Assembly (NCBI GenBank): GCA_963827165.1
Contig: CAWGZR010000004.1
Coordinates: 160,001-224,000, forward strand
From: Candidatus Bathyarchaeota archaeon
GTDB lineage: Archaea > Thermoproteota > Bathyarchaeia > Bathyarchaeales > Bathycorpusculaceae
Direction: 5' to 3'
DNA length: 64,000 nt
Notes under the pieces: generated by a model
The model's input: only the letters and a program-made list of their open reading frames with translations
What the model was told of the DNA's origin: nothing
Database searches by the model: none
In this document: piece after piece, positions 1-2,555 of the stretch
Numbering within the stretch: the first letter of the stretch is position 1
Layout: each line of letters starts with the position of its first letter
Translations under genes and position numbers: made by a program

Positions 1-863
1 ATGGCTTTTCTTACGCCTAAGTTCATATCCCATTCATTGGGGTATTCTATTGGGCAGGCGTCTTTGCATTCTCCGCAACCCGTGCATTTTTCGGCCATAA
101 CATATCTCGGGTTCTTGCGAACTTTAACTCTGAAATTGCCTACAAAACCCTCCACCTTGAGGATGTCCGCATTGGTTATTACTTGGACCTTAGGATGGCG
201 CAATACTTCCACCATCCTAGGTCCTTCAATTCATATGCTGCAATCCAAAGTTGGAAAAGTCTTGTCGAGCTGCGCCATGTGTCCGCCTATGCTCGCGTTC
301 TTCTCGACAAGGTATACCTCGAACCCCATATTCGCCAAATCCAAAGCAGAGTTGATACCGGCAATACCGCCGCCGATAACCAAGGCGTTTTTGGTTACAG
401 GGACCTCCATGGTTTCAAGGGGCTTGAGCAACCTCGCCTTGGCAACGGCCATCCTTATAGTATCTTTTGCTTTTGCTGTGGCTTCTTTAGGATCATTGGG
501 ATGGCACCATGAAGCGAACTCACGTATGTTCGCCATTTCAAACACATAAGGATTTAGTCCTGCTTCACTTACAGTTTTTCGAAATGTTGGCTCATGCATC
601 CTTGGGCTGCAAGCAGCCACGACAACACGGTTTAATTTGTGTTCTTTTATGGCTTTTCTGATTTCTTCTTGTCCCGGGTCAGCGCAAGTGTAGCGGTTTT
701 CTTTAACATAGACTACGTCAGGTATGGTTTTTGCGTACTCGGCGACTGAGGGTACGTCCACTGTGCCTGCGATGTTCATACCGCAGTGGCAGACAAAAAC
801 GCCGATCCGCAGTTCTTCTGGTTTTTGAGTTTCAGGTTGTTTTTTGGCTTCTGGATTGCTCAT
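1..863 (-). CDS. hdrA: Heterodisulfide reductase subunit A, N-terminal part (runs off window start); in-frame TGA at 233-231 read through
   Basis: [26 protein letters not shown], Rossmann GGGIAG and [11 protein letters not shown]; past the TGA the same frame continues [21 protein letters not shown]...[18 protein letters not shown]...[13 protein letters not shown] to the window edge. Confidence 0.95.
185..224 (-). promoter_or_regulatory. Putative recoding (SECIS-like) hairpin inside hdrA, starting 6 nt after the UGA
   Basis: mRNA GGACCU-AGGAUGG-UG-[GAAGUAUUG]-CG-CCAUCCU-A-AGGUCC: 13 Watson-Crick pairs plus U.G and G-C, with one bulged A. Confidence 0.6.
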
Positions 864-1792: not shown

Positions 1793-2180
1793 ATCTTTCC
1801 ACCAAGGGCTCTCCAAGCCGCCGAACAGAACACCAATGGCGGCTAACAGTTTAATTGGTAGGACTTAAAGTGCTTTTGATATAAATATTGCTTGAACAAA
1901 AACGTGCTTTCTACCATCAAAAACACCGGAAAAGAGTTTGTTTAGCTGACGGAATAGGTTTTAGATTTTATGTGTTTGTTTTTGAATCTTTGTACCCTTG
2001 TCCAACCTTTCCGCGCCCTATCTAAACCCAGTTTAAGCCATAAACCAGAAAATAGCCTAAAGTTCAGAAAAACTTCTGCGGCTGAAATTGTGAAGGCTCC
2101 TCTAGCTATGTCCTCGGTTGGCTTTCTTTGACGCCTATCTGATTTGATGAGCGTTGCCTTTTTTGGCCTTTTATACCATA

Positions 2181-2250
2181 TTATAGAGCATAAAATAGCA
2201 TAAGATAGCATATTTCAGCGTATTATAGCATATTATAGCATGCAGTAGCA
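2181..2250. repeat. Tandem array of 7 degenerate 10-bp units (consensus TAWKATAGCA)
   Basis: ttatagagca taaaatagca taagatagca tatttcagcg tattatagca tattatagca tgcagtagca. Confidence 0.8.
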
Positions 2251-2360
2251 ACCAAAACAAGCCCCATTTCATAAAAGCAACTCAAAACACAAACGGAAAA
2301 TTTTCTCTTCCCAAAAAAGCGGGTCCACAGCGCTCAAATCTGCGATTCTATTTATAGACT

Positions 2361-2400
2361 ATTTGATACGTTTCAATACGTTTCGATACGTTTTGGTATG
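2361..2400. repeat. Second tandem array of 4 degenerate 10-bp units (consensus TTTYGATACG)
   Basis: atttgatacg tttcaatacg tttcgatacg ttttggtatg. Confidence 0.7.
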
Positions 2401-2555
2401 TTTTGAGATTATGGTTTCAAGTATTTCAAGCCCCAAACCAAAAAAACAGCTCAAAACACAAAGAAAAAAAAATTAGAGGAAAATTTATTTTGTTTAAGGA
2501 CACAAACAAAGAAAAGATAAAGAGCTAGCTCAGCTTACCCCAAGAGTTGTCAGAG

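Follow-up and report, generated by a model that had tools for sequence, protein, structure and literature searches.

How does an archaeon that uses UGA as a stop codon set apart the few UGA codons that are to be translated as selenocysteine (Sec)? This question is raised by the window examined here, a stretch of 64,000 nucleotides (nt) from a Candidatus Bathyarchaeota archaeon (contig CAWGZR010000004.1), which begins within a gene encoding an HdrA protein fused to an MvhD/FlpD domain (hdrA-mvhD). When TGA is read as U, the gene comprises 835 codons counted from window position 863, of which codons 211 and 681 encode Sec. As an ordinary stop codon of the source genome (G000; other genomes compared are given as G###, and all genomes used are metagenome bins), TGA closes 318 of the 1113 long open frames, and some signal must therefore mark the two Sec codons off from stops. 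Here, a stable hairpin is described directly downstream of each of the two UGAs (H1 and H2, respectively). Both hairpins are found in the Sec-encoding copies of the gene and not in its cysteine (Cys)-encoding copies, and both are under purifying selection at synonymous sites. On balance, H1 and H2 are probably cis-acting elements in the hdrA-mvhD mRNA that mark the adjacent UGAs for Sec insertion rather than for termination.

A hairpin downstream of the first UGA

H1 lies on the minus strand at window positions 224..185, within codons 214-227 of hdrA-mvhD, and its base is 6 nt downstream of a UGA (233..231) that is in frame in the region encoding the N-terminal part of HdrA. The features of this region, in window coordinates, are as follows.

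1..863, minus strand, continuing left to G000:C4:158358: 5' part of the hdrA-mvhD fusion gene (translation with TGA as U; FlpD/MvhD domain with one TGA)
231..233, minus strand: in-frame UGA, Sec211 (translation with TGA as U; Cys, encoded by TGC or TGT, is found here in 28 of 30 relative loci)
225..230, minus strand: spacer AUUGAA, 6 nt, from the UGA to the stem base (the H2 spacer is equally long)
219..224, minus strand: 5' arm of the lower stem, GGACCU (RNAfold; pairs kept in 86-100% of 29 distinct alleles)
210..218, minus strand: 5' arm of the upper stem, AGGAUGGUG (RNAfold; AGG in 30/30 and GTG in 29/30 metagenome alleles)
201..209, minus strand: apical loop, GAAGUAUUG, 9 nt (most allele variation falls here)
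192..200, minus strand: 3' arm of the upper stem, CGCCAUCCU (RNAfold; CGC>CAC in one allele turns a U.G pair into U-A)
191, minus strand: bulged A on the 3' side (RNAfold; C in some alleles)
185..190, minus strand: 3' arm of the lower stem, AGGUCC (RNAfold; arm missing in one HPNIEII-type metagenome allele)

An earlier note on this DNA, made from the letters alone, had described a hairpin of about 15 base pairs (bp) with one bulged A, beginning 6 nt after the hdrA UGA and carrying a loop G some 25 nt from it. The minus-strand sequence and the RNAfold prediction agree with this description: the stem has exactly 15 bp (6 in the lower and 9 in the upper part) and a single bulged A, and the loop Gs are 22 and 25 nt downstream of the UGA. 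The minimum free energy (MFE) of H1 is -26.9 kcal/mol versus -13.9 +/- 2.8 for 200 dinucleotide shuffles (z -4.58), none of which was as stable. Likewise, when the same peptide was encoded anew with the genome's own codon usage, none of 2000 synonymous resamples (mean -9.7) matched the stability of H1. As a structure at this position, H1 is real. No run of T is present on its 3' side.

The same layout at the second UGA

The second in-frame UGA of the gene (Sec681) is located left of the window, 1410 nt from UGA211, in the motif FMCNW-U-GYAGAD. It is followed by the spacer GGUUAU and then by H2, which has the form GCCGGC-G-CG-GA-CC-loop-GG-GA-CG-A-GCCGGC and whose base, as in H1, is 6 nt after the UGA. 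The earlier note had proposed a search for the hairpin after other in-frame UGAs of the genome, and the layout is present here with a 6-nt spacer. H2 folds at -24.1 kcal/mol, a stability reached by 11 of 2000 synonymous resamples, and it includes a G.A and a tandem GA/GA as internal features. No sequence motif is common to H1 and H2.

Ranked by hairpin stability among the 989 in-frame TGAs of G000 that have open flanks, the two hdrA-mvhD sites are 5th and 8th. The six TGAs placed above them include five on the GC-rich contig C10 (57-65% GC) and one on contig C3; none of the six reads like a selenoprotein gene and one resembles a true stop followed by a hairpin. This hairpin-ranked scan of G000 yielded no further credible Sec candidate. 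Additionally, no in-frame stop was found in the SelD gene (C3:248992-249867), the NiFe hydrogenase large subunits, or the other FlpD genes of G000, and the genome seems to carry no further selenoprotein gene. Within hdrA-mvhD itself, the H1 and H2 windows take ranks 5 and 10 among 817 overlapping in-frame windows, with adjacent windows sharing the same stems. A separate scan for Sec/Cys pairs inside G000, in which 21,335 TGA-spanning peptides were compared with the genome's own open frames, was set aside: its output was mainly off-frame paralog matches, and it could not recover the known Sec sites because G000 has no Cys copy of this hdrA.

Contig C10 also drew attention in its own right. At approximately 1-35 kb and at 369.5-369.9 kb it contains stretches of 57-68% GC (versus 44% for the genome) with many long off-frame open frames, and these stretches may be foreign DNA or contamination of the bin.

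Sec and Cys copies of hdrA-mvhD

Homologs of HdrA were found in 41 of 41 relatives searched, and in most of these genomes the best match has Cys at the site. A survey of the genus recovered a match in 109 of 120 genomes, 11 of which (including G000) carried a UGA copy that was 88-95% identical to that of G000 over 146 amino acids (aa). Several genomes carry Sec and Cys copies in tandem, on the same strand of the same contig (L072, L080, L082, L084). G000 encodes the Sec copy alone, as the one hdrA match in a genome that is 94.5% complete. The nearest relatives of the Sec gene are the Cys copies of Bathyarchaeia (73-80% identity), which are often adjacent to it, and not bacterial genes. Two other apparent TGA alleles proved not to encode Sec: the copy in G021 is frameshifted around the motif, and that at G032:C84 has Cys at the site and its TGA elsewhere.

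The predicted folds of the 54 nt after the Sec or Cys codon were compared, with each distinct sequence used once (MFE in kcal/mol).

Site 1, Sec: 15 distinct windows, mean MFE -25.2 (-27.7 to -20.7), at or below -20 in 15/15
Site 1, Cys: 34 distinct windows, mean MFE -8.4 (-13.1 to -5.1), at or below -20 in 0/34
Site 2, Sec: 14 distinct windows, mean MFE -23.1 (-24.3 to -22.4), at or below -20 in 14/14
Site 2, Cys: 30 distinct windows, mean MFE -13.5 (-18.9 to -6.3), at or below -20 in 0/30

At -20 kcal/mol the separation of Sec from Cys copies is thus complete at both sites, and this includes the tandem Cys copies on the same contig; the earlier note had treated a stem shared with Cys homologs as evidence against its proposal. 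The same note had remarked that the residues around H1 (GPRM..HPKV instead of GPKM..HPNI) deviate in the way that builds the stem. This contrast was seen against 28 Cys homologs of relatives, and at site 1 each of the three changes that set Sec copies apart from Cys copies, namely K>R (AAR>AGG), N>K, and I>V, creates pairs. At site 2 the peptide is near-identical in Sec and Cys copies, and the stem GCCGGC...GCCGGC is mostly a matter of codon choice, with Sec copies using GCC GGC GCG ... AGC CGG versus GCU GGU GCA ... AGC AGA in Cys copies.

Two Sec copies appear to be broken in frame and retain intact stems. In G099 (L075/L078) the frame is split into 322 + 589 codons, and at L093 an insertion of 1 nt in the loop of H1 puts the gene out of frame. 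Either copy could be a pseudogene or reflect an assembly error.

Purifying selection on synonymous sites

Synonymous constraint was scanned across 16 unique full-length Sec genes by means of pairwise observed-to-expected ratios in windows of 15 codons. Pairs of these genes differ on average at 31.5% of the codons for the same degenerate amino acid (0.315). Over all 835 codons, the ratio is lowest at codons 682-696 (0.21) and codons 213-227 (0.27), that is, the stretches directly 3' of U681 and U211; the next lowest window has a ratio of 0.46 and the median is 1.03. Since all windows share one tree, relatedness does not explain this ranking. A version of the analysis with nine genes gave a single codon in 14/16 and 12/16 conserved-residue columns versus 28% gene-wide (hypergeometric p about 1e-6 and 1e-4). 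The synonymous sites of both stems are under purifying selection and, with a ratio of 0.27 after U211, the selection on RNA structure that had been suspected for H1 is supported by constraint on the synonymous sites of its stem.

Further alleles were obtained from metagenomes with the degenerate peptide pattern U-I-E-G-P-R-M-V-(E/D), which leaves all synonymous positions free. The 42 contigs recovered included 41 with at least 60 nt after the match and 30 distinct alleles, all in the context FPTLDCSI-U. Codon usage in these alleles is almost uniform, with CCT for Pro215 and AGG for Arg216 in 30/30, GTG for Val218 in 29/30, and GGA for Gly214 in 25/30. The 3' arm of H1, which lies outside the constraint imposed by the search pattern, is also nearly invariant among the 30 alleles. 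Variation is concentrated in the apical loops; the remainder affects the third base of the spacer, the outermost and innermost pairs, one inner column of the lower stem, the bulge, and positions 3' of the stem. One allele with the Cys-type residues HPNIEII forms the upper stem only (-18.8 kcal/mol). Consensus folds of the post-UGA segments have energies of -19.0 and -22.8.

Sec machinery of the host

The host is an archaeon, as had been assumed, with a small subunit rRNA that matches RF01959 at 1483 bits; its genome has a reported contamination of 3.9%. Directly left of the window, at G000:C4:153706-157542, is a Sec island that encodes a PSTK-aSelB fusion, SepSecS (388.6 bits), and tRNA-Sec (64.5 bits), the last of which aligns with 9 acceptor and 4 T-stem pairs. 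The fusion is a single gene of 731 aa with a KTI12/PSTK domain at residues 8-241, EF-Tu-like domains, aSelB_III, and a weak eEFSec_4th match below cut-off. Its PSTK domain scores 141 bits, which is under the equivalog cut-off of 290.5. Among the 17 closest loci for this factor, 14 belong to Candidatus Bathyarchaeota/Bathyarchaeia and 3 are under other labels. Such fusions have already been published for Bathyarchaeota (PMC8762117, PMC9499178), and an Archaeoglobus species is likewise reported to carry one; here and below, statements on the literature refer to the portions of the cited papers that were available.

The SelB half is closest to the solved SelB of M. maripaludis (4ac9, 1.4e-74, residues 1-426 of 454) and next to human eEFSec, and the bacterial SelB 4zu9 aligns only over residues 4-317, which correspond to domains I-III. 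The bacterial SelB-wing_3 domain (PF09107) had no match in the 94.5% complete genome, in a search with this one wing family, and SelA was represented in G000 only by a match of 19.7 bits, under the family cut-off. Judged by its domains, SelB here is of the archaeal type and is without the winged-helix SECIS (Sec insertion sequence)-binding domain. The bacterial-type C-terminal domain for which the earlier note had proposed a check was accordingly not found.

Other Sec genes in Bathyarchaeia

In a class-level sample of 401 genomes, 13 encoded a PSTK domain, always within an open frame of 700-770 aa, and 4 of these 13 belong to distant families. Sec islands from the distant families include tRNA-Sec in two of three scanned (G170, G230), and also hold SelD with U, a UGSC-family protein, and four putative secreted proteins. 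SelD with Sec, in the motif G-U-x-C-K, was found in G039, G230, G087, and G170 (L175-L178). G087, which is of the same genus as G000, encodes two PSTK-aSelB copies that are 72% and 59% identical to that of G000. The segments after the UGAs of these genes are as follows.

Four putative secreted-protein genes: hairpin z -2.2 to -3.3, main stem from nt 7-8
SelD of G039: z -1.9, main stem from nt 7-8
SelD of G230: -15.5 kcal/mol, main stem from nt 7-8
SelD of G087: -9.2 kcal/mol, no clear hairpin
SelD of G170: z -0.9, no clear hairpin
UGSC protein of G170, L171:6185-6859(-): z +0.3, no clear hairpin

The UGA-adjacent layout therefore recurs in unrelated genes and in distant lineages, and it is not universal. 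The genes of the putative secreted proteins (L170:5918-7162(-), L170:4754-5797(-), L170:1342-2406(-), and L169:11560-13020(+)) each have a hairpin after the UGA. Their products have an N-terminal hydrophobic leader, and the in-frame UGA is at an aligned position, with 37% identity across U (E 2e-15). Searches against Pfam gave nothing for two of the proteins and, in the remaining two, domains that are only peripheral (Big_13/Dockerin, CarboxypepD_reg). The four are considered a putative new family of secreted or surface proteins.

Search for a SECIS elsewhere on the mRNA

If the hairpins were only helpers that boost the efficiency of decoding, a true SECIS should be present elsewhere on the mRNA. 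The untranslated regions (UTRs) of the 16 Sec genes, taken as 120 nt on the 5' side and 150 nt on the 3' side, contained no consensus structure (RNAalifold 0.0). Mean identity was 0.40 in the 3' UTRs, with 0 invariant columns, and 0.57 in the 5' UTRs, with 3 invariant columns. Descriptors for the methanogen GAA/A and for AUGA..GA elements matched neither UTR in any of the 16 genes, albeit in a scan that had no positive control. Similarly, an Rfam search at E<=10 over 7 kb of the locus found no SECIS family, returning only tRNA-Sec and four unrelated matches (E 2.7-7.3); an Asgard control locus was likewise without an Rfam match, and the sensitivity of this search is therefore unproven. The 3' UTR of G000 and that of G009 contain an AUGA, which was discarded as a SECIS core since it is not kept in other genomes. 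A canonical SECIS in the UTRs, which the earlier note had named as the competing source of recoding, was thus not found in 16 genes, by negatives of limited power.

These results bear on the alternative that survives best, namely that H1 and H2 merely raise efficiency in the manner of eukaryotic Sec redefinition elements (SREs) and that the SECIS proper, placed elsewhere on the mRNA, went unrecognized. SREs are stem-loops by Sec UGAs that cooperate with a 3' UTR SECIS (PMC8704476, PMC3541580), the three Sec sites in fusion-bearing genomes that lack a clear hairpin must rely on another signal, and the UTR scans had no positive control. It speaks against the alternative that the UTRs share no structure and next to no invariant columns (0-3), that the 3' UTRs are 40% identical versus 90-92% for the post-UGA segments, that no Rfam SECIS family matched, and that in G000 a convergent open reading frame (ORF) ends 113 nt past the hdrA-mvhD stop codon. 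A purely auxiliary role for the hairpins is accordingly regarded as rather unlikely.

Comparison with known recoding elements

H1 and H2 resemble the bacterial SECIS in that each Sec UGA has its own hairpin immediately downstream, within the coding region, and in having a G-containing apical loop approximately 20-25 nt from the UGA. Unlike in the bacterial system, no SelA scores above cut-off, SelB has no winged-helix domain (PF09107 is absent), Sec is made via PSTK and SepSecS, and tRNA-Sec has 9 acceptor and 4 T-stem pairs. The label bacterial-SECIS-like, given to H1 in the earlier note, is therefore apt for the UGA-adjacent layout in the coding sequence but not for the machinery, which includes an archaeal-type SelB.

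The SRE of SELENON likewise starts 6 nt after its UGA. SREs (of SELENON and other genes) are further similar to H1 and H2 in being UGA-adjacent coding-region stem-loops with synonymous-site constraint, and a spacer-dependent effect on termination versus Sec insertion is the likely mode of action (PMC8704476). In contrast to the situation here, where the host is archaeal and no distal SECIS was found, SREs operate with a 3' UTR SECIS and SBP2.

The SECIS of methanogens, like H1, consists of two helices with an asymmetric junction at which the 3' strand has an unpaired A, and it serves the archaeal PSTK/SepSecS/aSelB pathway. Unlike H1, it sits in the 3' (rarely the 5') UTR. Moreover, its internal loop, flanked by G-C clamps, places GAA across from A, with both As invariant (PMC11881835), whereas H1 carries just one bulged base, A or C, and the GAA in its loop is GAG in many alleles. 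The eukaryote-like SECIS of Asgard archaea also serves archaeal hdrA and frhD/mvhD selenoprotein genes (PMC11227280), but its AUGA..GA core, A-rich apical loop, and 3' UTR location have no counterpart here, with no AUGA..GA in 16/16 UTR pairs.

A further close published system is the atypical Sec system of Bathyarchaeota with PSTK-aSelB (Mukai et al. 2022, PMC8762117), in which the same cluster of PSTK-aSelB, SepSecS, tRNA-Sec, and a selenoprotein gene is present. The main text of that paper contains neither the word SECIS nor HdrA, and the recoding signal of the fusion system is therefore not described there. Other accounts, in the portions available, place the archaeal SECIS in UTRs and name no in-frame element (PMC11227280 from 2024, PMC13188914 from 2026, PMC8211752, PMC9499178), and reviews from 2021-2026 consider the archaeal SECIS-binding factor unknown (PMC11227280, PMC13188914, PMC8211752). 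No description of such a hairpin was found in the available literature on Sec and SECIS in Bathyarchaeia, where the supplements of PMC8762117 and PMC11227280 could bear on novelty. The comparison suggests that a UGA-adjacent recoding hairpin, as known in bacteria and eukaryotes, is present here in an archaeon with an archaeal-type pathway and is new for archaea.

Proposed mechanism and remaining alternatives

In the mechanism favored here, once a UGA occupies the ribosomal A site, the stem, with its base 6 nt further 3', would stand at the entrance of the mRNA channel, an arrangement also used by read-through and frameshift stimulators and by the SELENON SRE. From there the stem could slow or block the action of release factors as a physical brake, or it could serve as a docking site that keeps the PSTK-aSelB fusion, or some other partner, close to the ribosome. 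In either mode Sec-tRNA(Sec) would win the competition, and H2 would do for UGA681 what H1 does for UGA211. That H1, H2, and the stems of other genes have no motif in common fits a structure-based action, for which either mode is possible. The candidate archaeal UGA-recoding signal put forward in the earlier note thus gains support from a stem confined to Sec copies, from synonymous constraint, and from the like arrangement at the second UGA, from which a function in recoding may be inferred.

In this group of Bathyarchaeia, local hairpins seem to replace the UTR SECIS of methanogens and Asgard archaea. A more far-reaching and tentative proposal, which is possible but held with some doubt, is that the fusion-bearing Bathyarchaeia decode Sec by UGA-adjacent hairpins alone, with no UTR SECIS, and that the hairpin is bound by the fusion via its PSTK part or via SelB domain IV.

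Several observations weigh against assigning H1 and H2 a role in recoding. The covariation that the earlier note had looked to is lacking: among 29 distinct rows, 0/15 pairs have changed on both sides, the score is not above that of shuffles, and the proportion of paired cells (97.2%) equals that of shuffles. Two one-sided changes keep pairing (A-U to G.U and U.G to U-A). It should be noted that columns 1-5, 7-8, 10-11, 13-14, 17, 19-23, and 25-26 of this alignment were fixed by the search pattern. The support is therefore conservation, which cannot tell structure from sequence, and part of the upper stem (AUGG/CCAU) is dictated by the conserved residues M-V...R-H. Further, the proteins encoded by the hdrA Sec alleles share 86-93% identity with that of G000, and from these identity values alone the link between UGA and hairpin looks like a single origin, in effect one maintained evolutionary event. 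The three Sec sites without a clear hairpin (SelD of G087, SelD of G170, and the UGSC protein of G170) are in fusion-bearing genomes, the archaeal-type SelB has no RNA-binding domain of known type, and a SECIS that is farther off or of unfamiliar shape could still be present.

A second alternative is that the hairpins are functional RNAs that do not act on decoding but, for example, affect mRNA stability, bring about selenium-dependent attenuation once translation has terminated at the UGA, or bind a regulator. Synonymous constraint demonstrates a function at the RNA level without specifying which, and Sec and Cys copies are often in tandem, a gene order that accompanies selenium-dependent regulation in methanogens. 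Nevertheless, H1 and H2 are both exactly 6 nt after UGAs that are 1410 nt apart, and the stems of unrelated Sec genes begin at nt 7-8. This shared register of stems to UGAs points to the decoding ribosome, and the absence of a T-run after H1 is a further argument against a role of this kind, which is considered improbable.

That the stems have no RNA function at all, being a by-product of amino-acid or codon preference or a relic of a bacterial selenoprotein gene, is very improbable: the lack of covariation, the mini-helix AUGG/CCAU that follows from conserved residues, and the GC-richness of site 2 that comes from its Ala/Gly content (Cys copies there reach -18.9 kcal/mol) would fit such an origin, but 0/2000 synonymous resamples reach H1, the two windows of lowest synonymous rate coincide with the two stems, the nearest relatives (73-80% identity) are the often adjacent Cys copies of Bathyarchaeia and not bacterial genes, and the Sec machinery is of archaeal type.

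If H1 and H2 do mark their UGAs for Sec insertion, an in-frame hairpin of its own at each Sec UGA would represent a third layout for archaea. If, moreover, decoding depends on the hairpins alone, an archaeal/eukaryotic-type Sec pathway would here use a bacterial-style local signal, and archaeal evolution would have included a switch in SECIS position between UTR and coding region. The UGA-adjacent element, at 40 nt, would be a simple and portable tool with which to study codon recognition by aSelB-type factors. Annotation would be affected as well, since programs that look for selenoproteins by a 3' UTR SECIS in archaea would overlook such genes; a candidate new family of secreted proteins is among the Sec genes of Bathyarchaeia identified here.

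Neighboring features

A weak match to the transfer-messenger RNA (tmRNA) family, at 32.5 bits versus a gathering score of 47, was obtained at L170:16810-16930 (+), at the end of an archaeal contig that also encodes putative secreted proteins, and is probably spurious. Within the window, a Cys-rich ORF of 318 aa lies upstream of hdrA-mvhD on the minus strand (860-1816). Its stop overlaps the hdrA start at 860-863, and the ORF is therefore probably co-transcribed with hdrA. Upstream of the hdrA operon region, window positions 2150-2420 are intergenic and contain short direct repeats, with units like TATAGCA/ATAGCAT followed by four copies of GATACGTTT.

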